The notes: a model not told the origin generated them from the letters alone. Shown: positions 4,882 to 51,387, counted from the stretch's first letter. The stretch is DNA of 64,000 nucleotides from Phoronis australis (GCA_002633005.1 NMRA01000005.1:1913048-1977047); one strand, 5' to 3'. Program-made: numbers and translations.

Positions 4882-7852
4882 CTCGGTAAAAAGGTTGATC
4901 ATGACTTCAACTGCTTTACATACAGAAGGACTCGTCTCTGTTATTTGTAAATATGTAAGAATTTCAGTACAGAAAGTAAAACCATACTGCACTCTTTGTT
5001 CAGATTGCTGTGTAAAAGTAATATTCCCTTCTGACACCGTATGTTGCAACAGGATTTTAGTATCTTGGTGTTAAGTAACAGTTGTTGTATGCAAAAAATC
5101 TTTGACTGACATGAGAATTCACAGTTAATATGAGTCTGATCTTCATTAACACCTGCCTGCAGCTGTAGTTGTTCATTTTGAAAGGACTGAGAGGTCAATT
5201 GGTACATTTACCTGTGATAGAACTGAATGGTTCAAAGTAAACATTCCGTCTTATTGTATCGTAACTGTTTAAAACTTCTATGTTTGGAAATGAAATACAC
5301 AATGTAAATTCTATATATTTATTATTGTTATTGGATCTGTGTTCAAACATACAACATTACAGATAAAAATAAAGTCATGTGAATCAAATGAAACATTAAG
5401 TGCTGCCACAGAATTGAGAATTACATGCGATTGGTTCAAATAATCATTTCAGTTGTCTAAACATATAAACATTTCATTTAATAATTCTCTTCACAATAAT
5501 AACCAACTGAGTTAAAACAGGATTTTCTCATAAGAAATACACATCAGTCAGACAGTGTCATAGGCACAACTGAGTCTCACACCTGAGAATCAAATCCGTC
5601 ACACTAGATTCAGGGGTACATTTCATGAAAGTGATTAAGGAGTAATTTTGTCTGATAGTCCCACTTCACAATTGCTAAAGAAAGGTTCAACCGAGTAATT
5701 ATGAATAAATAATTTATAGGAATTACCTTGAATAAATAAGCAAACTAATTACGATAAAAAGTAAAACAGAAAATAAATGATGGTATACAATCAAGACACA
5801 CCGTGTAAGTTACTAAGAGTTACCTGTGTTTTCTCCCGAGACTGCCTTGTTGGTCAGGTGAGATTCAATCATTTTTCACATAACAGTCGTCTGAAGCACA
5901 ATTTACAAATTTCTGTCTTCAGTCTTAGGCTTCTTTCATGAAACAGGCCCAGGACAGCTCCAAGACAGAATCTGAGCAGAGCATCCATGCAGGACAAAGC
6001 CTGTGTAGGATGGTAGTCTCATTATTAAAGTTCTGCTGCTGCTACGACATCATTACTACAGTTCTAAACAGTTGCAAGTCAACTGAAGATTCCCAGGAAA
6101 TAACCCACTTAATGAAGTCTTAGAATTCTCTATAGCTGAAGTTCTAGGACTGAGTGTGACTGGCACTTGCAAGCGGGGTAACTTGCAATGTACTCCCAAT
6201 AAAACCTGATTTTGTCCATCACTGTGTGCAAAACATGCTGGCAGTGGAATCTCATTCAGATTGTTTCCAGGCAGTGTAAAATGTTCACTTTACTCTGCAG
6301 ACCGAGATATGTGACTGTGATTCATACCCACATGCTGGTAATCGAGCATCACAAACTGTCTTACAGTCCACAGTACATTTTCACTGCTAAGGTTTTCAGA
6401 GCACTGTCAAATCAAATTGACTTTTATGAATTACTGATGAGAAAAGTTGTTCACGTGCAGTTATTTCCACAAAATTATCATCGGGATTACAAACACATAG
6501 GAATAGGGTAACGAGCTGTCTGGTGGCTCCTGTGAATAGGGTTAAAATCTGTAAAATTAGTATTCATGTCTTGATAACTCACCCAATCCACACCTTTACA
6601 TGGATGGTTACACGTTTTGAAAATGAGGCGGGATATGATATTTAATATGAACTGACAACTGGATGCTGTCCACTTCGTATTCACTTTGACTTCGGTAGTA
6701 ATTTCCAGCACACTACTACTCATGTTTCAAACATGTGGCTCCCTAAGACATCAAAATGTCTTTACCCAAAGACAAATTCATAAACGTCTAGTTAGATTTA
6801 GACGCTTTTTATGAGATTACAAGTTACAGGAATTTTTTACTTATTTGACACAAAATATGGTTGACAAGTGACATTCTATTTTGTTTAAATTTCTCTGCAA
6901 AAGTGAGAATCAAGAACATTTTGGTCCAACACAAGCACAGATTGTGGTGTGTAGATGTCATAAAATAACATTTTGCTAAAACTGCTAAAACAGCTTTTTG
7001 ACAAATGGAAAATGACCATTCTGACAGTTATTTTGTGCAGTAGTTTCACTCTCAGATGACAAGTTGCAGTATCCCCATTTGAACAGATTATCTAAAGAGT
7101 AGGTTTTACTCAAGAGACACGCGGTGTTCCCACCAAGGAGCGGAGGTCACAATGAAAAGCGACACTGACAGAGAGATCACTAAGCTTCGTGCTCTTGGCA
7201 AAACTATTTTTCCAAATATATATTTAAGTCATGACTGATAATTATATCGATAAAAAACATTGAGATTCTGTGGTTTCAGATGACCTTATTTTTTGAAGCA
7301 CAGATGAGATAAAGTTGTCATTGGCTTGAATGGATCACAATATTAAACACTGACATATTTACAAATGGCTACACACTGGACAATCTTTTGAAAAGCAAGG
7401 ACTATTAGGCCTAGTTTAGGGCTGCACACTGTCAAGAATTATCAATGGGTCCAATATTGATATTTTCTTACTGATATATTATTGTATTGGACACGACAAC
7501 CATCTGCTTAGTATTGCTTTCGTGGCGAAGTTTATTAATAGAAAACTGAGTGTTAAACTCGCATTTCAAGATGAGGCTTCCTATTAACAAATCCACAGTG
7601 CATTCATTCCACCAAAACGAACATCGCCTTACGCAGCCAATTCAATGTGTTGAAGCTGTGACACATAATATCCACTGATTTTCTCTGGATTGATGAGAAT
7701 ACCCATTACTCTTGCAGGTCTTTCTTTAAGTTTACTATCGACATGTACCTGTACTTGAGTAATCATATGCAGCCTAGCCACGTATGCTTAAACAGTACAA
7801 CACAATAATTATGTTAAATTCTCGAGTCTTCAGTGTTAGTCTGACTCACTAT

Positions 7853-10800
7853 TCACTTGAACTCTGTAAAAGGTCTCTGCCCTAGTGCTGGTAAATGTGG
7901 AGACTGGCAGTCTACATAACCATCATTATCAATCTCCTTCTTGTCTTTTCTATGTGCCACATTCTTTTTGAATGCTTCGATGGGTGGCAATAGTAAGCCT
8001 ACACCAGGTGGCGCTTCCTTCGTTTTACGCACCGGCGTGCACAAATGAACCTTGGGCAGGAAGTCTTTGTTACGGGTCATTATTTCGTTAAACTTTGTTT
8101 TAGCTTCCTCGTGATCTAGTATTTTACCGTTCATAGTACCTTCTCTTAATAATTTAGATGTTTTCTTCGCGCGGATTCTTTCTGGGTTCATTGCATGAAC
8201 ACAGTTCTCGACCTGACGTCGTAAACCCCGCAGTGTGATACTCTCATAGTTGACGGGTCTGGAATCGGTTAAACTGGCGTTGTATATTTCTGGCACCGTC
8301 CTCTGCCTCACCATACGCAGAGACGCCTTAATGCCTTGAATCTCGCTCAGACTTTGTTTGTATGGTTTCTCTTCTAAAGATACACGGTATCGAAAAGCGT
8401 CTTTGTATTTGTCAACAAGCTTGGTATAAATGTTCAGTTTAGCTCGTTCTTGCTCATTTATCATGGAATTTAACTTGCGTCTCTTGCTTCTTATCTTATT
8501 GATGACATACAACCGTCCTTCCATACTATGTGCTGACTTGGCTGTAAACGTGTCATTGAGTCCACCCCAGTCTAAGGGGTCCTGCAACAATAAGCAACAG
8601 TAATTAAACATGTTAAGTTAAATCATTTTACTACACTATTAACTTAGAGCAAAAACTTTGTGGCATGTACGGATAATTTCCAAGAATAAGCTCATAGGCA
8701 GACAATCGAAAAACTACCTTTCAAAAATGTCAAATGAAACTGAATACAAGCACAGGAGTATTTTCCGAAAAGAGGGGTGTATATTTGGAAACTTTGACAA
8801 AATTTTTATGATGTAGTTTTAAAGCAAATAATTATCATTAATCATTCACTCAAGACTCATTTCAAGGAAGGTGATAATGTTAGTCACCAACTAAGACAAC
8901 AAAATTGCGTTTAGCTTTTTGACACCAGTTGAGATAGTAATTCTCCTGCTTTATCAACTGCAGCCACTGGCCTTTGTCATGGATACTTTGCAGTGGAAAA
9001 TGTATGGAATATGTTTGCATATTTTTGAAAGGCATTAGTACATCCCACAGCACGAAAGGCGTTAAAATGCTATTTACATTCATTATAGTAGCTTGAGACC
9101 TCCCATCCACAGTACATGGGACCTGTGTGTGGCGCTGTCCACAAAACACCTGATCGCCATCTAGTGGGATAGTGAATTTCAATATGGCACACTTATTTCT
9201 AAAGTCAGCTATTGAAAATGCCAAAAAATTTCGTACCAGCAAAATCCCATCAATTAAGGCACACTACGGTGGACAAGAGAATTTTTTTTTCACAAAGGAC
9301 AACTTAGAAGTATCAAATAGATGCTTCATGACTTACCTTCTATACCATACCTCCCAACAGATTAAGTATGAGAAAGTGTGACTATTTGAAACATGAAGAT
9401 CAATGTTGGTAATTCTTTTCAATTTTCAGTCAAAAAAAAAAAACAATTTTCAGCATCAATTTTTATCTCAGAAAATCAAGGGACTGTCTCAAATTTAAGA
9501 AGTCTTACCAAATACAAACTTATAAAAGAACAATTTGTACACTAAACACATTTAACTAATAAACATCATTTGGTTAAGAAACAAAAAAATATCTGGGACA
9601 AATGATGAACAAAAAATGGATCAATTGAGTTCTGAGAATACAAGGTTTTCGAATCAATATGAACACAGATCATACATATGCATTAGAGACCAATGGATAC
9701 GGGTTGCAATTTTAGATCACTTTAAAATTACAACTTACCTCATATCCTGTTATAACATCCTAAAAAGAGAAGAAACACTGGGTCAAAGTTACGCATACAA
9801 TAAAAACACACCAATTAAAGATACAATATGGTCAATAAGTGAAATTCTGCCTTCTTGTTTTTTCCATAAAAGTTTTGTAACACTAAAGTAATGGTGTGGA
9901 CAAGCTATGAACCATGGCGACCATCAGACAGTGTTTTGAAAACCTGTGGAGAGTCACAATGCTAGAAGACTTTAAAAAAAAATGAAAAAAGAACAATTTA
10001 GCAATACATTGGTGAGACTTTACTTTGCATAGAGAAAGTTTTAAACTACACAAATGCTCAACCAAGAAAGCAGACTACATTATATCAGGCCGCCAAATGG
10101 CGCTGAATACAAGAAAATTATTTACTCCAGGCGGATTTGGTATATTGTATACCCTTATAATGATCTAAGCACGATGGAGTCACTAAGCACCCAAAAATTG
10201 GCTGACTGTAACTCCATAAATTAACCTACATCAGCGAATAAACCCATTTGCATGGCAATAAACGTCCTCGACTTGAATAACCGACAGCAACAGTTCAATG
10301 CCACCATAATGGCCGATCCAACAAGAATGTGCAGGAAATATTAAACACCACTAAGGCACCCCTGAGTTTGTTTGCCCACAGACCCATTAGTATTCACTGT
10401 TATTGTGAAGTCTAATAGGCACTGCATTCATGCAAGTTATCCCTATTCATAAGACCCCATTACCTTTCCTCATATAATCACAACCAAGTGATGTCTGAAT
10501 GTTGGGTTCTGTTATTTTTGACGAGGCACTTAAAGACCACAGTTATTAAATATTAGAAATAATAACCACAGCACCAATATCAAACAGGAACGCTAGAAAG
10601 TCGAACTGGATTACACCAAAGTATTGTATCTCAAAAGGATCATAACCAAGTACAAGAATGTACTCGGTCAATTAGAGCCAAACCTTGTGCAACACGGCTA
10701 ATTTTCTCAATTGGTAATATTAAAACATGCTAGACAAACATGAAATTTTCACCATTTTCATTTGATACAATACCGTTTGTCCTGGTGAAAATATTTTCAT

Positions 10801-11373
10801 GATTTTAGACATAAAAATTAACATATTTTTCTTCATTAAAAACCTTACTTTGATAATTTCCATGTTTGAAATGAAGGAAGTTTTTGGCTGACAACTCTAT
10901 ATGTAAAAAAGTGTTCGCTGTAACATTAAAAAACTTATGAGGAGTTTTATTGACATTACTCAGCAGTAAGGCGAGCAAACATCTGTTAATGACCAGCACT
11001 TGGTTGAAAATCCAATATGGAAGATGGTGCAAATGGACCAAACACTGAACAAGCCCACCACCTCCAAATAGCTTCAAGACTTCAATATTAACACTTACTA
11101 AGTGGACCCTAAATTTAAGTATTTTTAATTCTTTGGCGACCAGCAGGCTGTGCAAAAAACTTGGAGAGAAAGAGCAGTGACAGCGCTACACCTAACATCA
11201 CACTTTCTGCTTGCTCTGCAATGCTGTTACCACATTAATAAACATAATGTTTATAAGAATAGCACTAGTAATAATTGTCGCGATGATGTTGCCACATATA
11301 TTGATTTTCGACAAAGCATGTCACAAAATTATGACCAGTTACCATCAGGCACACCTTTATTATTACTAATACC

Positions 11374-11411
<38 letters not shown>

Positions 11412-13654
11412 TATAACTATTAATTGGAATGCTACCATATTCAAACATCTTTGTATTTATATACGGTAGAAACTCACCAATTCAGGTTACAGTATGGTAG
11501 AAAACTGAATTTTTTTCATCAAAATTACAGTTTTACCATTGAGAAACTGTGGGCATTCCCAACAACCTTGAAATCTCTTGGCCAATATTTGGAGGTGGGC
11601 GTGTTTGCAGAAATTCCTGGTACCTTTATGATTACACAAGACCTTACTAGCAGGTATGTGCATTTATCCAAATATCTAAACATACTAAGAATCCCCTATC
11701 ATAATGGTAAAAGTAAAAATTTTCTCAAATTACAACTTTATACCAACCTGCCTTTATTTGTGTCTTTTTGTGGGAAATTAAGGAAAAAAGAAAGGCACGT
11801 TCACATCTAAACAAGAGCATCAACATCATGACTAAATAACTGGTTAAGCTACAACCTAAAAAATAATGTTTGACTTTTCTAAATTATCATTTTGTTTTCA
11901 TTTAACATAACATTGGATTTTTGTTTATAGCAATTACAAAAGTCCTATTTTTGATCATACCCTCATGCAAAATATAAACATTTCAAAAAACATTTCGAAG
12001 AACAGAGCATAAAATGTAGTATCTGAAAGTTTCATTTGAATATGATCAGCCATTTCTATGACGTGTGGAAGTGGGCCAAACGCGGATCTTTTCTCAGGTC
12101 CACCATAACCAGTTAAATGTTCGAAGTTTTCTCAGCAGATACACGGATGAGCCCGGTATGTATTATGTAATGAAACTCAAAATGCTGTTCAGACCAATAC
12201 AAATCAATACTAGCACACACTTTTAACATTTCTATTCCAGAAGATTAAAGTAATTAATTTTCCTATTTATTCAAGATTGATGAAATAAAAATGTAAGAGA
12301 AACTTCAATAAAGACAAATTTTACAGGAAAAAATCCAATGTTCACCTTACTAGGCATTAATCCAGTCAACTGTAATACAAAGGCATCGACTTATAGTACA
12401 GTCTTACTACAGGCCTTAGGCAGTGTGCTGATCTAATGTTTTTAAGTAACTGCTGAGGGATTGAACCACCATATCTACTGCTGTTTAGTTTGGTGTTTTT
12501 TAATTTATTTGTTTTTTTTATTTTGCTCAGTGTTACTCTACAGCTGGTGAAACAGGTCTGTAGCTCATGCTTACTGTTTTTTTTTACAACTGAATTTAGA
12601 ATAATATTGACTTTGACTTGACCAACTGCACTGCCGAGAATTTCACTAACACTACATTAACATTTCACTAGTTTCAGAAAAATATTACTAAATTTTACTT
12701 CTTTTAATTTCTAAGGACTTCTATGATTGCTGTGATTTACAGTTTTCCAAAACATTGCTTAATAGGAGCTTTGGAAAAAAAACATACTTTTAAATGCGAA
12801 AACATTTATTTTACAGATTAACCTTCACTTAAATCTCTCCCGAAATTGCGTTCTAAATTGTTGAGAATTTACAGAAAATCAAACTTTCTGAACATGGTAC
12901 CATCCCAAGCTACCTTTACCTACCTGTGACTTTCAACATCTTACCTGGTCTGGCGACAGCCGTTGCCCACACTACAAGGTGGAGACAAACGACCAGTGAC
13001 AAGAACAATGGCGCTTATGTCACACACGCACAACACCATTCAAAAAGCCCAGCGTAATAGCCATTTAAAGTATCAAATGAGACCAATGAGTGCAACCAGC
13101 TTATAATATTTCAGTTTTAATAACAAGACGTTTAGGATTGACTTGCTCAGTGAGGAATTAAGGAAGTGGTTTAGTTCTTACTTAGGTTATATGATACACA
13201 GCGACTAAATGATAAGAGGAATTTGGAATGCTTTTATTCATTAATTTTAATAGGTTGGGTATCTTCAGCTTATGTAACTATTTTAAACTTTAAATGTTAA
13301 TATAACTTCTTTTAGTACTATTTCCATTATCTGTTCACCTTTAATTCACATGCAAGAATTCCTGTAGTAGAATAGATTTTTGTCTAAGGTCATTCCATGT
13401 TATCTTGCAACACAAAACTGATCAGAGGTTTAAAATGTTATTAATACCTAAAACAGTTACAGCAAATAGCTAATATGAACAGTGAACAATATCTTATTAC
13501 ACTATAATCATTTCTATATAAACTTTGTGTAAAAACAAAAAAGTTAAGTACTGATAAAAATCTGTTCAAACCTTGAAAGAATGTTGCCATGACCACACCG
13601 TAAACAAAACAGTCAAAATAGCATGTGATTACTCACCTCAACAATAGGTGGCAT
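7853..13654 (-). CDS. Uncharacterised 264-aa basic/helical protein (exons 13654-13637, 12971-12945, 9759-9739, 8581-7853)
   Basis: All four exons are phase 0 with canonical polypyrimidine-AG/GT sites: MPPIVE | CGQRLSPDQ | DVITGYE | DPLDWGGLND...QRPFTEFK*. The last exon is a 729-nt open frame (ORF 7853..8611). The terminal exon is well supported; the small exons are inferred. Confidence 0.7.
11375..11413. repeat. (ATT)n microsatellite
   Basis: Run of attattatt... read directly. Confidence 0.9.
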
Positions 13655-13665
13655 TGCGTCCCGCT

Positions 13666-16600
13666 TTAAGTCACCATTTTCTTTTTTAATCGTAGATACT
13701 AAAAGGAAAACAAATAAAAAAATCTTTAGTACCACTTAATGATATTCTCAACTTTTGATAATCCATATTTACTGCGTTTTGTCAAACACAAATTTTAATA
13801 GGCTGGTTTTAATGCAAATAAAATACAGCATATTTACAGCTCTCACAAACTGTAGCTCTGGCAAAAAATGGTAATCAAATCACATCGAAATTATATTCCC
13901 AATGACCATTAAACAGCTTTCCCTGTGTAACATTTTTTGACTTTGAAAACTACGTTTTTTATAACTGATTGGCTTTTTGCTATCTAGCATTACCCGGTTA
14001 ATAAAGTTCAACTCAACAAAAGGCGCGTTAACCTGGTAATTTCTCAAAGAGCAACAGCCATAAGACCTTTAGCAACTAAAAGTAAATTCTGAGGGTCTTC
14101 AAAAATTCTAGCTTCAGTGTCCAATACACATGATCACTGGATTTCCAGTTCTGTTTCCTAAAGACTTGAATAGTTACAGAGTCACCAAGGCAACTGCCAC
14201 TACTTTTTGCTCACAAGGTATGACATTGTTGTCATGACAATATATCAGGAGTAGACACAAGGACATCAAATATAATATGTATTGACCTGTTGAAGTGGAT
14301 ACAATATGTATTGACCTGCTGAAGTGGAAACCAAAGTTTATGTGTAATAAAACAACACAGTAGTTTAGTATAGAATACCATGATGGTACTAATCAACTAC
14401 ATCATCAGGTATTAATAAAAATATTAATCTTTAATAATCAGCGAAGTAATGTCAATAAATTTGTATTAATATGGGATCGTCTAATACCTTCATGGTATAG
14501 CTATAGCAGACTTAAACATCAACAAATAACAGATATATTGGACAACACATAGCTTTCTCAATATTGAATCCTTTAGCAGTTATAACAGCAATACAAAGAC
14601 TTTCATTCAAGTTTAAAATACCACCTAGAATTTCTACAGTGTTTGCCAACCCATCCAAATTAATTCGGGCTAGTTCACACCAATGATAGAAACTCTTCAA
14701 ATTCCTTTCAACTGTAAAGACCAATTAGTTTTATGGCAAGGAAATTTCTGAGACCTGGAGTCTGAAACAGAACAGAGTTCATCAGTGTTAAACATCTTAC
14801 TCCATGTAAACACTGCTACAAACTGCCTTTCCTCAAGTGAACTTTAGCATTTGATTTTGATCTATTACCATTATAATCCTGATCTCAAATTGTTCCAGTT
14901 TTAAGGTAAACTGTAAATCCGTATTGTTCAGTGGGATTTGAACAGCCTTGATGTTATAAGTTAGAAACGAAAATGCTTCCATGAAGATTTTGGATCTTGC
15001 TCAGGTCAAGTCAAAGACTGCTAGTACTTACAAATAATAATATTCTTCACAAATTCTGCAAATTTGTTACCACTCATTCTTCACAACTGCTAACAGTCGC
15101 ACACCAAACTGAACTATGTCATATACTGGCTACCCTAGTACCAAATAGTGGCATTGTGTATATTGTCACCAACTGCAAGGTAGAGGACTTAAACACCTTA
15201 CACAACAACAATGAAGAAAGTTAATTCACTACAAAAACACAATGTTCAATGATCAAGTCTTTCTATGAAACCCCATGAAGTCTTGGGGACTCACAGATCC
15301 AGTTGAGGTTTGGTATATTGACTTATATTGACTTAGTCACACTTGCAAAGCTTCTGTACAATTAAGTTCGAGATTCTATGATTCTTGATGTGAACTGCTT
15401 ATTATGGTATAAGATACTTAGATATTTTAGAATTAATACCCATGGCAACATGAGAGCACTTGCAGGCTTATGTAGGATCCTTGAAAACTGTCAAAATATG
15501 GCCAACTTCGGAACAACATATCTCAAAAACTGATGATCAGATTCACAGGAAACTTTCCGATACCGTACTTTATGCATAGTTCTCTGATACTCTGCTAGAA
15601 ATTGTTTTTTAAGATGTTCCTCTTTTGCATAAAGGTCTACCGAAAAAATAGAAATTTCATGATTTTCATGAAAAAATTAGAGTTACATAATACGAAAACA
15701 AAATGCCAACTTAAAAATTGCAACATTTTTTTAGATTTCACCTTGAACCTCTCTATCAAATGGAATTTGGTTATTGGTAGCACTATTTTGCTCTCAAGGG
15801 GCCTTTCTTATTTTGCTAAATTTTACTAAAACATGGTCACGTGACACATTTAAAGGGAAGTTGGTGAAAAGTCAAAAATCGAACTCTACAGCATTTCTAC
15901 TTTCATAAAACATAGTTTTGCAGAGTTAAAATCTATATTTTTTGTAGATATTCGGTTAAATACAGATTTGTTGATAAGGTCTCAATTTTTATTTTTCTTC
16001 TGATTAGATCGAGAATATGATGAAACTTCATGAATTTCGATGGGATTTCAACCTTTAAAAACTATTGGAGCATACGTAACTACCATTAACACAAAACTGA
16101 ATTGAAGACTTGAGTACCAACTTAAAGCAAACGTAATAAACCCAAAAATAAGAGCTCAATGCCCGTCTTATACTTAATTACATACTACAGCCATAGAAAT
16201 TTGCTTCGGTAATTTTCCACTTGTTTCACACAAAAATAATTGCCAAAATTGTAATTTTCCCATTTTTCAAAGGCTGAATACCTTGATGCCAAATCTCGTT
16301 TTTGTATCATCCCCACAGTAAAAACCAAACTAATGCTAGACTAAAATATAACTAATCTGTGTTTTGTGGACAAAGTTGACAAAATAAAATTATTTGCTAA
16401 ATAAGCATAGACTTACTGTACATAGAATCAAAGCAGACAGGTTTACCTTGAGGCGCATAGCTCTGACAAGCGAATGTTTGACTGTAAACCGGCTCACAGA
16501 AGCATAAAGTTTATACGATGAATAACAATGACAGTATAATATTGCGCTTCATAAAGCCATTGTTCACTGATGATCCTGACCGCAAGATATCCCCAAAATT

Positions 16601-18717
16601 ATGCAGTGGATAAAGGTTGAAGGTATAGGCGCAACTAAATCTGGGAAAGCTTCAGGTTATACCCACCACAGGCAGCTCGTTAAACGTGACTTACTGGTTT
16701 AAGCTTGCAGCAGCGCTGGTTTCCCCGGTTTTGATTAGGAGATGATCTATTTTAACAAGGTCCACAACACAAGGTCATTATGTAACGGCAGAGAGATAAA
16801 TCTGCAACGTCACTCCAATGATGTTTTAAAACACTTAGCAAAAATAAATTTGGTATTCTTGGAATTCACAATACGTATATATGACGACAAGGACTATGAT
16901 TATGAATTGACTCCTCATTAAAACACACTATCTGAAAAAATAATGAAAAATTGTCTACTCTGAATACAGTGAAAGGGAATAAAAGATAAAATGGCTTCAG
17001 TGATGTGCAAATTAGTTGACCAAAGTATTAACTCACAGTAGCGGGACGCAAAATAAGTTGCTACATAGCTTCAGGGGTTTGTTTCATAATTGAGTCTCTG
17101 CTACCACCACTATTTATAAGCTTCATGATAAAATAAATAAAAAATAAGACACAAATCCTACACATGTGAAAATGACCAATTTGAGACATAAAAGTGCTAA
17201 AGCTTCCAAAGGCAGCAAAGATTAAAATAAGTGTCCCTAGTAAACTATCCACTTTTCATTCCAAACTTTTTTATCACAAAAGAGTTTTTCCAGTCTCTTT
17301 TGCCATTAATAAGATGTTTTAAGACCTGCGTGTAAAATAAGCTTTTCAAGTGGACTAAATGAGTCGAGTGACTTGAGATGAAAAAGTCTTACAAGTAATC
17401 CTGAAATACAAGTACAACTGAGTTTGAGAATATTCATAAGATATTAGCTCAATCATGCAATTGTGCGTCATTTGCATCTATAACAGGTTAGTCCTGAAAT
17501 AGCACAATACCACTCTAACGTGAAAATGTTCTGAAGTCGCTATCTCATATCTTTATCATTATATAATTCACCATGATTGTAGCGCAGACAAAATTGCATT
17601 ATTGCATTTTGAGATCCAGTGCTGACATAAAGAAATAGGAACATGGCTGCCAAGTCTCATTAAGATCCTGCAAGCGGTTTAGGAGACAGCAGCAGACTAA
17701 GGCGACAGCAGTGTGCACAAACCATGCACACACTACAAAATTTTCCCCAGTTTTTCAACTGATCCATTACAACATATATAATAATTACTCCTTTCTGCCA
17801 TATTCATGAATACTATATATGAAAACTACCTGGTTACCATTTAGTTACTGAATTTGTTGAGAATAGCACGTAGATAAAACTTACATTTTTACGACTTTCT
17901 ATAGCCTGTTGTATCCACAGCAACTCCATGGCGATATCTGTTCTCATTTTCTCCAGGCTATGCCTATTTCGAGGCAATGTAGGCTCAGCTTGGTCTGTGA
18001 ATAAATGACTAGCTATAAAAATAGCAACATGTTAAGATAAATATGAACAATGAACAATGCAGAGTTTGTACGGTACTCCTTATTGCAAACACTAGAGGGA
18101 GCAATGCCACATAAATTGAAAATGCTTGTCGGCGACACAGTGTTAGTCATTCAACCAGCTAACATCATCTTCTTGAAAATGAACATCGCTGCAAAATTTT
18201 ACGAATATTCATGATGCAGTTTGGCAGCTAACAAGAAGGACGTAATAGAACTGCTAGTAAAATTTGGTAAAAACTGATCAGCGCCATCTTAACTTTTACC
18301 AAAAGACTTCTAAAACACACAAAAGATCAGTTTTTGGTGTCAAAGGGCATACAATGCTACATATAAGTGTAAAACTATAAAAAAACAGCTACTGACCTTG
18401 CTGCATGGTGACATCAGTCAGCCAGACAGATGTCACATCAGAGTTACTGTCCAATCTAGTCAGCTCACACTGTTCATCCCCAGCGCCCACATCTGGGTGT
18501 GGTTGCTTTACGGGTGTACTGGTAATAGGACTATCCAATACAATACTAGCCTCGAGAACATGTGTTGGTTTAGTCCTCTGAAAACTATCCTCTACACGTA
18601 TGTTACTGACTTCAGGTGGCTCTGCTAAATAGGTTCGTGGTGGTTTTGTGTCATGGTCTGCAACCTGCATTTTTTCTTTTTCTTGCTGTTGCTGTTGGTA
18701 TTGTTGTTGCTGCTGTT

Positions 18718-18748
<31 letters not shown>

Positions 18749-21700
18749 TAGCTGTTGTTGTTGCTGTTGTTGTTGCTGTTGTTGTTGTTGTTGTTGTTCC
18801 ATGAAACTGTTCGATTTACGTTGGTCAATATCTGATATTGGAGGACTATCGATTGACATGGACACTGCTGAACTACTGCTGGTGGATGCTTGATAATCAG
18901 TTGGGCACCGTTGATGTTGTGAGAGCCCACTGTGATTATTTCCTTCAATATCCGATGTTGCCATATTATCAACTACATGGACTTCACCTGAAACACAGCT
19001 AGTATTCGATGACTCAATTTGTAGATGACACCCAGTAGTGTCTTGTAGTCGTTCTTTAGAGCTACCTGTCCTCTTGTTCCTCACACATGTACTATCCACA
19101 GATCCAGTCAAGCCACTGACTTGACCCACTTCCCCAGAGTCTGCACCGTGAACCTTCTTCGCACAGACAGTGAACCCTGCCTGTGAGCTAGGACTTCCCC
19201 CGCTGTGTGTTGCAAGATCACATTTCTTTGGCTCTTCGTTTCTTTTCATAGGAAAACTTGGCAAGCATAGTTTGGAGGATTTCCACACCAACTGAAACGA
19301 GGATTGAGACCTAAGTAACACGAGTTGATGACATCACACTTCTGAACACAGTAGGAACACAATGCCATAACATATTCAGTGCTACCACAGCAATTCAGTT
19401 CAAGATTTCAAAAAACCAGCAAATTTCCATATAGATGACCAAAAAGGTGACCAAAAACCAATTAGTTCTTTGATGAAAATGACAACACAATGTCATATTT
19501 TTGTACTATTGTAAGATGTAAGTCAGAGCTCCCTAGATTAGTACAATGATGACACCAGAGGGCGCTGATATCTTTTAGCTCATGATTGGCCATAGAAACG
19601 ACACCAAGCACCTTAGCAACAAATCCTGACCTTTCCAACAAGGGCACAGATTGGTCAACTCATAAGAACAATTTTTGTCTTTTAATTTCATCTTGATGTA
19701 TAACGGCAACACATAAATTTCAGTGTCTGTGTATATTGCACTGGTGCAACATCTATCAGGAAAAGTCAACTCATGTGACTTTTCAAATAAGGAAGTAAAT
19801 ACAGTAGCTTGTCTATGACTTTATTTTTGTCTTGTGCCAAGCCAACTGATAGAACGAGCCAAAGGACTCCCAAAAAGTAATCTTCGTGTAAAGGCAAGAC
19901 GAAAATATTTTGAAATTGGCCTTAGCTGAAGAACATTACCGTACCTTTTCTGCAAGTGGATCACCCAGGTCACTGATAGTTTCCTCATACTGTTTTCTGA
20001 TAGACTTGAGCTGCTGACGTACCAAGTGACCTCTTAACCAAGCCTGCAACAAGATGGAATTAAAACTGCTATTTCTACAAACAACTTGCAAACTAGTGAG
20101 AATATCTTGTTGCATCATGTCAACTAAAAATTAAAATTGACTATGTTTTTTTACTTTAAAAAACCCAACCCAAGAATATTCCTAAGTTACCAGATGAGAA
20201 GAAACCTTGAAACCATCTGTGACTCAAGAAAAAGTTTCAAAGTTAATTGAACTTGGACAACCTTAAATTGCATATTTGAAAATGGTGCATGTAAGAATTG
20301 CTCTTTACTCAAGGTGTTGGTCCATTTGGCAATAATTCAAGATCAGATGACCACAGTAATGACTTCATAACTGACTAAACAAGGATGATAGTCTGCTCGC
20401 TTTTAAACAAAATTTAGACTGCTCAAAAACCAACAAATATCAGTAACATTGAGAACGACTTCAGAGATAATTTGTAGTCTCAGTTCGATATGTATTTCGC
20501 CATATCCTCCTTGACTAAATTTCAAATTTCAACTTGGACATTTTTGGCGATCGACCTGAAATTTTTTGTTACTACCCGGCAAAGACAAACGCGTTATCTC
20601 CTTTACAAGCGCTGCCAGCAACTGACATTGAAACAAACCTTACCCCACATGTGAGCCTTACTTGAATGCCAGCTTAATTTCCGTTGTCATTTGTCATGCC
20701 GAGAACAACTACACTGCTTTTTTGCTTAGCTACAAACTTTGTTAAGTACAAGTGCAGCAAATTATGTCTCACACTGACTAAAACATCAAAGTCACGTTGT
20801 TATAAATACATTTTGCATGTAGATGGACACCTTAGGAGGTCGTCGTATTTACACCGTAGGAGGTCGTTGTATTTAATTCCTTCCAACTTGAACAAATACT
20901 CTTGTTATCAAACTTTTTCTTTGAGCAGTCCTTCATTCAGTTCCCAAAATCGCTAATATTTAAAACAACATGACTTTGATGTTTCAGTCGATGGTCATAG
21001 ACTCTATTCACGCGGCGGACATTAAAATCCAAAGCGAGGCTCACTGCGATAAACAAAGTGGAAATTTACATTGCGTGAGTTAAATGGCCGGTCTTGGAGT
21101 CCAACCTGAATATTAAATCTTAAAAAATGTGTCAATAATTAACCACAGAGACGTAGAAAAATACAGTTAAAGAACAAGTCAATGCACCGAAGAGTTGTCT
21201 AACGAAAGGATATATTTTTTTCCGGAAAACTAGGTTCGACTAAACATGAAAAGTAACATGACCAAATTGAGGCGATCGAAGTTTTACGGATTAGGTATCA
21301 TGCTGAATGCAGGGTTACGTTTCTTCTAATAAATTCTTGATAAAAATGCTTTCTACGCGAACCAGGTCATCTGGTCGTATTGTTGACGAGTTGAAAATAT
21401 ATTCGGCAGCGGTGGCTCATAGCATTTTGCTGTCATGTGCAATTAGTCACATCTGGTTTAATTTGTTGATCAAGAGTAGGCCTATTAGCCTCAATCACAG
21501 CCTAGGTCCTGGTGAGGTAGGCACTACCGGGACTAACACTTGATTTGTGATTGATCTGAAACAATACTTGATGTTATTAAATATATATTTTGATTACGAT
21601 AAAAAACTAGGCTCACAATTGAAAATAAAAATTATATGACCATCAATTCTGCTTTCTTGGTTTTAATAATTACGTCTATTTCATGTGTTATATTTTTTCA

Positions 21701-35898: not shown

Positions 35899-45123
<9,225 letters not shown>

Positions 45124-49780: not shown

Positions 49781-51387
49781 AGGAGAATGCCACCGTATTT
49801 AATTAGTCTTTTTTACCGTCTTAATCGGTCCATATCCACATCACCTCTTATACGGTCGACCTCACCTTGCCGCGACCTCACCTTGCCGAGAGGTGTCGCG
49901 TTAACCTGTGAGGAAGGTGATAAACGACGCAGCGACGTCAGTGGTTCGTCTGCAGAGTGAATGCCGCTATATTGCGTTGCATCGTCCCCGCTTGTCCGGA
50001 CTATGAAGCTGCGAAGAAAGCGGGTATATCGTTTTTTCGACTTCCTCGAGAGCCCGAAATGCTTAGGAAGTGGCTCGCGGTAGTGAAGAATGAAAGGTAC
50101 GCTGTTAATAGCAAGTATGAGGCCGTGAAACATCTCCGTGTGTGTGGCCGGCATTTCGTCGACAGTGATTTCTCTGACGAATTCCGGCTTACCAAAGAAC
50201 TATTCATACGTTCCGTTGCATGTTCACGGCGCCTCTGTAGTATTTCTGGATCAGTGTATTCCGGTTCGAACTGATAGCCTGTGAAACCTAACGATCCGAC
50301 CCGTGAAGTCTTCGTCGGATGAGCTCTTGACCAAGTCGGGATTGGCGCCGGTCGAGTTGCCATGTAGACGTTTATTATTCTGTGTTCTGTTTCAAAATGA
50401 ATTATTCTCATCCTCACCAATGCTTATATAAAACTGAAACAAAGTCGGTCTCATTAGATACAATTTGTTAATATGTCTTTGGAGTAATCGTGAGTGCAAA
50501 TGTTGAGAAGCCAGCAATGAATAAACCACTGCGTTACCGGCTCTTGATGCCGGCAATAAAGGTAATTGACCGGGCACCGAGACCGTGTGAGCGCATGCTA
50601 ATTCCGTGCTTACTGACAGAAAGCTGTTGTGAAACAATTACTCGATTTTATATGCTATGGTTACATGTTAGGGGAATCTTTATTTATAAATACAAATACA
50701 TTATTTAAAACATTGTTACTGTACAACCTTTGCCCTGACGGTCTGTGGAAGGGGAACCTGACACATTATTTCTTTGGCTCACTATTATAGTCTTTTCGTG
50801 ACTGGAGGTTTAGTTTCCAACTCAAGATGGTTTATGTTCGTGCCAGTCCCGGCGGCCGCGACGGGCATGATCGGGTTTCGGCACTGGCCGGGATAACAAG
50901 CGTTTTGTGTGTTTAGACCTAAAAAAATCATAAGTCTAAACAACACAGATCTAGGTTCTCATGTCTGTATTTCACGGAAGAATACTTCGAATTTATCTCC
51001 GAGCAGACCCCAAACTCCTGCTACGGACCTTGGTAAATTGGCTGCCGAACTTTGTAGGCTACTGTGTGTCCAAATAACAATAAATTCGTAACAGCGAAAT
51101 AAAACAACACGTTTTTATAAGAACTCGGTGTATTTTTAAGGGTTTTACATCGAAGTTTGATGATTTATTAGTGTTAAACGATGAATTCAAGCTACAAGCT
51201 GACACCAGTAACCCGTGTTGTGAACTGCTGAACAGACTGCGTGTGAAACCAATGACGTCGTGGGATAATTTCAACACATCCGTCTGCCGTCAGGTGTCAG
51301 GTAACGCAACCGAACGTGCAGTTATCGAGTAAAACTACTCGATCTAAATTGATACAAAATAGGTTGTTTTTTGGGTGGCATTCTCCT
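49781..51387 (+). mobile_element. Non-autonomous Kolobok-type DNA transposon (1607 bp)
   Basis: Perfect 14-bp TIR AGGAGAATGCCACC/GGTGGCATTCTCCT, TTAA on both sides, purine-purine 5' end, and an internal THAP coding fragment. These are established Kolobok features. Confidence 0.85.
49969..50274 (+). pseudogene. THAP zinc-finger fragment (transposase N-terminus)
   Basis: RCIVPAC...SFFRLP..RKWL..LRVCGRHFVDSDF is the C2CH THAP signature. There is no in-frame ATG, no AVPTIF box and no catalytic domain. Confidence 0.8.

Follow-up and report, generated by a model that had tools for sequence, protein, structure and literature searches.

A locus on the minus strand of Phoronis australis NMRA01000005.1 yields a dicistronic mRNA, in which the IQCC reading frame, its stop codon, an 11-nucleotide (nt) spacer, and a second open reading frame of 255 codons (ORF2) are carried on one spliced RNA. 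Coordinates throughout are those of the window, i.e., the whole 64,000-nt stretch that was analyzed. The name IQCC is presumptive: it follows the label used in an original prediction for this DNA, and no named IQCC was found among the matches. That prediction had offered two arrangements for the locus, namely one spliced mRNA with two cistrons or two transcripts sharing one acceptor. At the RNA level, the former was supported: single reads contained both joints of the shared exon, and the exon was not seen to be entered or left in any other way.

The shared exon of 62 nt (13698-13637) was present in the DNA with the acceptor and donor that had been described for it. It contains, in order, the last 10 IQCC codons, the stop codon, the 11-nt spacer, and the first 6 ORF2 codons. 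As predicted, the phase 0 frame of IQCC ends within this exon, at the TAA at 13668-13666, and an ATG at 13654 (G at -3 and C at +4) sits 11 nt past this TAA in the -1 frame relative to IQCC. The 729-nt exon at 8581-7853 was likewise found in the DNA. The proposal that ORF2 reaches this exon through two microexons held in part: the 21-nt microexon is used (8 and 12 reads on its two sides) and preserves the frame, whereas the 27-nt microexon at 12971-12945 was skipped in the RNA described below. In the RNA-supported form, ORF2 is 255 amino acids (aa) long, and the IQCC stop is trailed by approximately 3.3 kb of mRNA.

RNA evidence was drawn from three raw-read runs (X1, X2, and X3) and one contig set (X4), all labeled with the same species. 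The reads came from approximately 18-19% of each raw run and were placed on 5500-18400, an interval outside the IQ-motif exons. Three GT-AG joints from stranded RNA sequencing were listed on this interval, all on the gene strand: 17885>13698 (9 reads; X1 6, X2 3, X3 0), 13637>9759 (8 reads; X1 4, X2 3, X3 1), and 9739>8581 (12 reads; X1 4, X2 6, X3 2). Five other listed joints, which had no GT-AG ends, were read as repeat artefacts. Of the two junctions proposed earlier for checking, 17885>13698 was recovered, whereas 13637>12971 was used by 0 of 8 donor reads, which joined 9759 instead; the donor at 13637 is itself in use in all 8. Chained together, the three joints describe, at low depth, a processed mRNA across both ORFs from exon 17885 downstream.

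The two joints of the shared exon occurred together on at least 3 reads (X1 at least 2, X2 at least 1). In X1, 6 of 7 reads had a loose end at 13698 matching the IQCC exon and 3 of 7 had a loose end at 13636 matching the 21-nt microexon plus exon 8581, so that at least 2 reads carry both joints. Four X2 reads crossed the whole shared exon; the upstream joint was found on 3 and the downstream joint on no fewer than 2, so that at least 1 carries both. The records on 12900-13800 numbered 7, 6, 1, and 0 in X1 to X4, with no substitution or indel listed, and none of the X4 contigs lay on the shared exon. Read identity on this interval was 99+% for 8 of 8 reads from X1 and X3 and for 4 of 6 reads from X2, the other 2 being at 95-99%. 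Ten reads covered the A runs of the shared exon with no indel listed, indicating that the 62-nt length is not an assembly slip.

None of the 8 reads at donor 13637 entered the intron, a result that leaves room for approximately 30% read-through (95% bound, hand calculation), and none of the 10 reads at acceptor 13698 was intron-derived. In four of four runs, depth was zero across the intervals 13210-13612 and 13706-13800 and across the 27-nt microexon, which all 8 donor reads bypassed. The loose ends at 13698 matched the IQCC exon with an agreement of 1.0 (9 reads), and no spliced leader was seen among these 9 reads. The depth of ORF2 was approximately 8, versus 4-6 for the shared exon. No monocistronic form of either gene was seen at a depth of 1-7 reads, with scattered intronic sense reads present. 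The features of the locus are listed in Table 1.

Table 1. Features of the IQCC-ORF2 locus in window coordinates.
Feature	Coordinates	Strand	Basis
Shared exon, 62 nt	13637..13698	-	DNA reading and RNA joints; acceptor and donor present
IQCC stop codon TAA, ancestral position	13666..13668	-	L001 has same codon and same phase-0 intron; L002 stop 4 codons earlier
ORF2 start codon, likely	13652..13654	-	First ATG past IQCC stop; 255 codons in RNA-supported splice form
In-frame microexon, 27 nt, candidate	12945..12971	-	Good splice signals; zero depth, skipped in every read seen
In-frame microexon of ORF2, 21 nt	9739..9759	-	Flanking joints seen in 8 and 12 reads; loose-end consensus
ORF2 main coding exon, 729 nt	7853..8581	-	32 relatives at E<=1e-3; RNA depth ~8 in X1 and X2
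Long 3' untranslated region, putative end at AATAAA at 5323	5300..7852	-	Sense depth in all bins as far as 5500, where the covered interval ends
IQCC exon with IQ motif, predicted	19945..20043	-	AG/GT ends, open frame; weak Pfam IQ match
IQCC large low-complexity exon with poly-Q tract, predicted	18397..19291	-	Open frame; chain translates through to IQCC stop
IQCC penultimate coding exon, conserved C-terminal motif	17885..17994	-	Joint 17885>13698 in 9 reads
A-rich slippery-type heptamer in IQCC frame, probably chance	13681..13687	-	Sequence pattern

The predicted IQCC chain (20043-19945, 19291-18397, 17994-17885, and 13698) encodes 378 residues to the stop and holds 20 ATGs ahead of it. Neither exon 1, sought in two scans, nor the start codon was located; the ATG count is at least 20. 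Two acceptors of the penultimate coding exon, 17994 and 18012 (-), are both in frame and 18 nt apart; because depth was zero in 17999-18400, the acceptor is likely 17994. Within the large exon, a CAA/CAG tract at 18690-18800 (-) encodes a long poly-Q run.

From 490 candidate metagenome stretches, only two loci related to IQCC were obtained (L001 and L002), both distant, and a word-index search for the IQCC exon gave no match, which is a weak negative. The penultimate exon was 49% identical to L001 and 58% to L002. The Pfam match to the IQ motif was weak (E 0.045, below the cut-off); this motif and the C-terminal ELxWIQQAI-S-RK motif are both present, in a layout common to L002. The phase-0 intron, the 10-codon tail, and the stop codon of L001 are all placed as in Phoronis IQCC, and L002 has no intron and a stop 4 codons earlier. 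Judged by these alignments, the IQCC TAA is an ancestral stop. Downstream of the L001 stop, no GT[AG]AG donor occurred in 367 nt and no ATG in 100 nt. Three codons ahead of the Phoronis stop, an ATG at 13677-13675 (-) lies in the IQCC frame in a strong context; it would make a 3-codon upstream ORF if some RNA started there, and L001 has a Met at the same codon.

Judged by its relatives and variants, ORF2 is a real, separate protein-coding gene, a member of an unnamed family found in animals. A phmmer search gave 32 relatives at E<=1e-3, which were 182-428 aa long and 20-33% identical; the IQCC N-terminus was present in 0 of 32, and all stand alone. Among the 30 of 32 that were looked up, the named ones were uncharacterized proteins of molluscs, Capitella, and Branchiostoma; one relative cluster also contains a 1039-aa model labeled methylcrotonoyl-CoA carboxylase. 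Four of the five variants listed in the ORF2 coding exon were silent, and the fifth was V>I. Word-index searches for ORF2 at near or longer lengths gave no match, and these are weak negatives because phmmer then recovered the 32 relatives. No Pfam family was found for ORF2, and the 33 aligned family sequences gave just 2 stray single-member Pfam matches. The family (alignment A1), unnamed in Pfam, comprises several divergent subgroups from molluscs, an annelid, and amphioxus, and retains a C-terminal LPP-type motif. In a tree from a quick search only, which carried a long-branch warning, ORF2 fell on a long branch beside an amphioxus protein. ESM Atlas matches were all below 0.9, and no PDB sequence matched the family profile. 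The AlphaFold model of ORF2 consists of one long helix and three short ones (predicted template modeling score 0.47), and Foldseek returned nothing for it at E<=0.001. Its VIA-align matches were generic long helices (Z<=7.1), and the ciliary entries among them were not taken as evidence.

A further in-frame ATG lies at 8524 in the main ORF2 exon, and family similarity begins nearby; in 6 of the 32 relatives, the called start is a Met one column off this position, two of the six having longer cluster mates. The 33 codons between ATG 13654 and ATG 8524 are open (chance approximately 0.07-0.10), which mildly favors ATG 13654 as the start. Longer N-termini were seen in the relatives P0014, P0041, P0020, and P0021. 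In P0014 and P0041, an intron-like stretch ends just ahead of a DPL motif, like the 8581 acceptor, a pattern that hints at upstream exons in other species.

We propose that the ORF2 protein arises by reinitiation, with ribosomes that have terminated on IQCC starting again at the nearby ATG, a prediction to which we assign a probability of roughly 0.5. According to this model, the terminal exon of IQCC would have gained a donor 29 nt past its stop, so capturing the downstream gene. Ribosomes would end IQCC at the TAA and restart at ATG 13654, 11 nt on, and ORF2 would be translated from the joined RNA, probably at a low ratio. Leaky scanning to ORF2 is implausible by established scanning rules, because at least 20 AUGs precede the IQCC stop. 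The joined RNA would likely evade junction-dependent decay, since the last junction lies 29 + 21 = 50 nt past the stop with the 27-nt microexon skipped; it lies 77 nt past the stop if this microexon is included. The 50-55 nt decay rule is mammalian and may not hold in Phoronis, and 50 nt is at its edge. The stop-to-start distance of 11 nt is within the approximately 20 nt set for termination-reinitiation directed by a TURBS (termination upstream ribosome-binding site). In viral termination-reinitiation, the stop and start lie within 20 nt (PMC10275272).

Several points weigh against these conclusions. If mates overlap, the reads with both joints could come down to a single molecule per run, and the read depth was 1-7 per run, from the fraction of each run given above. 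The link between exon 17885 and the IQ-motif exons is predicted only, the reads having been placed up to 18400. Sense reads were scattered in the intron 13636-9760 (over six bins, approximately 14 read-equivalents for X1 and 5 for X2), unlike the four bins of the upstream intron (14120-15412 and 16706-17136), which were empty; they could reflect slow splicing or an internal promoter. No ORF2-family match was found on L001 (8358 nt), and the pair is known from one species only. As for translation, TGGGA, the TURBS core, was not found in the 150 nt upstream of the IQCC stop in the spliced form. Reinitiation after long cellular ORFs is described as presumably very rare, and the CASQ2 reinitiation product was approximately 82-fold below the upstream product (PMC5972666). 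TURBS-type reinitiation was rejected, no UGGGA core lying in those 150 nt; such a core is also missing in five human transcripts reported with coupled reinitiation (PMC5972666). Approximately 6 read-equivalents of X1 fell at 9810-10240 (-), within the sense-read scatter of 9810-13257. Short interspersed repeats at approximately 9020-9190, 12010-12060, 15470-16280, and 17650-17680 attract foreign reads and raise intronic depth.

The chief rival to reinitiation is a monocistronic ORF2 transcript. The joined RNA would then be a read-through form in which ORF2 is mostly 3' untranslated region, and the protein would come mainly from a transcript starting at ATG 13654 or 8524, produced from an internal promoter with tissue-specific activity or by trans-splicing of a leader. 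We hold this to be a possibility of some weight, though not a probable one. At 114 of 159 fly dicistronic loci (45 + 69), a monocistronic form of at least one gene also exists (PMC4528330), and a separate transcript would accord with the intronic sense reads and with the six relatives called from near ATG 8524, even if longer cluster mates exist for two of them; the RNA sampled as raw reads came from three runs of one study. However, every listed GT-AG joint chains IQCC to ORF2, the microexon-bin depth (4.3, 7.9, and 2.7 reads) is about that expected from spliced reads alone, the depth of ORF2 is close to that of the shared exon, and the loose ends at 13698 lead into the IQCC exon without a leader.

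Alternatively, ribosomes could enter the dicistronic RNA internally and translate ORF2 independently of IQCC termination. FlyBase curators suggest that use of internal ribosome entry sites may be common, most fly pairs failing the scanning requirements (PMC4528330). For the Phoronis pair, we consider this route improbable: downstream folding was at shuffle level, and the spacer is just 11 nt, so that any entry element would lie inside the IQCC coding sequence.

It had further been suggested that the shared exon, being open in a second frame, might be dual-coding. The frame is indeed open within the exon, but when the IQCC tail was recoded synonymously 20000 times it remained so in 89% of cases, and a TAA immediately preceding the exon shuts it in the spliced RNA. 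Dual coding, which would concern the 5' half of the exon, was rejected on these two grounds. A minor IQCC-ORF2 fusion could still arise by -1 ribosomal frameshifting at the heptamer 13687-13681, which is correctly phased and followed by a -1 frame open into ORF2. This appears very unlikely: a phased slippery heptamer arose in 44% of the recodings, no stimulatory structure was found 5-9 nt past it (z -1.0 to +1.2 over 15 windows, with pseudoknots outside the model), the heptamer is absent in L001, which also lacks ORF2, and no fused protein occurred among the 32 relatives. Given the recoding rates, the closed frame, and the shuffle-level folding, nothing but their geometry speaks for dual coding and frameshifting.

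The other arrangement in the original prediction, in which two transcripts share the 13698 acceptor, with IQCC reading through to an AATAAA and the second gene beginning in the last IQCC intron, found no counterpart in the reads at the present depth (0 of 8 intronic at the donor and 0 of 10 at the acceptor). The AATAAA is present at 13238, one X2 read pair lies at 13023-13192, though downstream of it, and the donor count is compatible with the read-through bound given above; against this, the intervals flanking the exon were empty in all runs and both joints were found on single reads, and we give this arrangement very little credence and reject read-through to the AATAAA as the principal form of IQCC. 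One fused IQCC-ORF2 gene, split through misassembly of the A run or the recent loss of one base, might be imagined from an exon length one base below the frame-keeping size and from the open second frame, but it can be dismissed in favor of a dicistronic mRNA because reads join the two ORFs and list no indel over the A runs, L001 stops at the ancestral codon and L002 close by, and the ORF2 relatives (32 of 32) stand alone.

A stronger version of the reinitiation model is unlikely. ORF2 would be a young, exclusively dicistronic gene that depends wholly on TURBS-free reinitiation, and the 27-nt microexon would act as a switch: skipped, it would leave the last junction at 50 nt, whereas its inclusion (77 nt) would expose the RNA to nonsense-mediated decay, lowering both proteins.

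The upstream ORFs of human MIURF-MIEF1, PYURF-PIGY, as well as ASDURF-ASNSD1 are small, as is that of STREMI-SLC35A4. Like these four human pairs (PMC13303939), the Phoronis locus combines on a single mRNA two conserved proteins that arose separately; unlike STREMI, whose upstream ORF is a microprotein, it begins with an ORF of at least 378 codons that contains no fewer than 20 AUGs. Green-algal pairs likewise encode two conserved, separately derived proteins in a single mRNA, but their data favor leaky scanning (PMC7896298), whereas the first ORF in Phoronis is long. Neighboring genes are co-transcribed here as in spliced-leader-resolved operons (PMC7896298); in contrast to these, the mature Phoronis RNA is cis-spliced across both ORFs, with no leader seen at 13698. 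In common with calicivirus and influenza B TURBS, human CASQ2, and mouse GAD, the locus has a long first ORF and a stop and start that are out of frame and less than 20 nt apart (PMC10275272, PMC5972666). It differs from the TURBS cases in having no upstream TURBS core and non-overlapping ORFs, and its coupling is putative. FlyBase 6.04 holds 159 Drosophila dicistronic pairs, 45 of them exclusive, and exclusively polycistronic fly loci have ORF gaps of -34 to 319 nt (PMC4528330). As in those loci, a processed mRNA carries two full-size unrelated ORFs, and the 11-nt gap is within the fly range. Unlike them, the pair comes from another animal, involves other genes, and is known from the RNA and sequence of one species; its ORF2 begins within the last coding exon of the first gene, with two introns past the first stop. 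Literature searches, beyond whose reach most subscription journals lay, found no report of an IQCC bicistron or of IQCC readthrough.

Elsewhere in the window, an exon at 36657-37037 (-), which probably belongs to a calmodulin gene, lies on the same strand approximately 17 kb upstream of the IQ-motif gene. Open frames overlap on both strands at 49813-50423, and the + frame at 49924-50274 presumably encodes a THAP-type zinc finger, which is possibly transposon-derived.

The surprise of the finding is limited because dicistronic mRNAs are common in flies and the pair was seen in one species. Gene finders would miss, truncate, or fuse ORF2. Few examples of reinitiation following a long ORF are known in cells, most of them inferred, and this locus is a compact natural test: the spacer is 11 nt, leaky scanning offers no plausible route, and the stop sits on the border of the junction decay rule. 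It also illustrates a route to a dicistronic unit, in which a terminal exon would gain a donor just past its stop.

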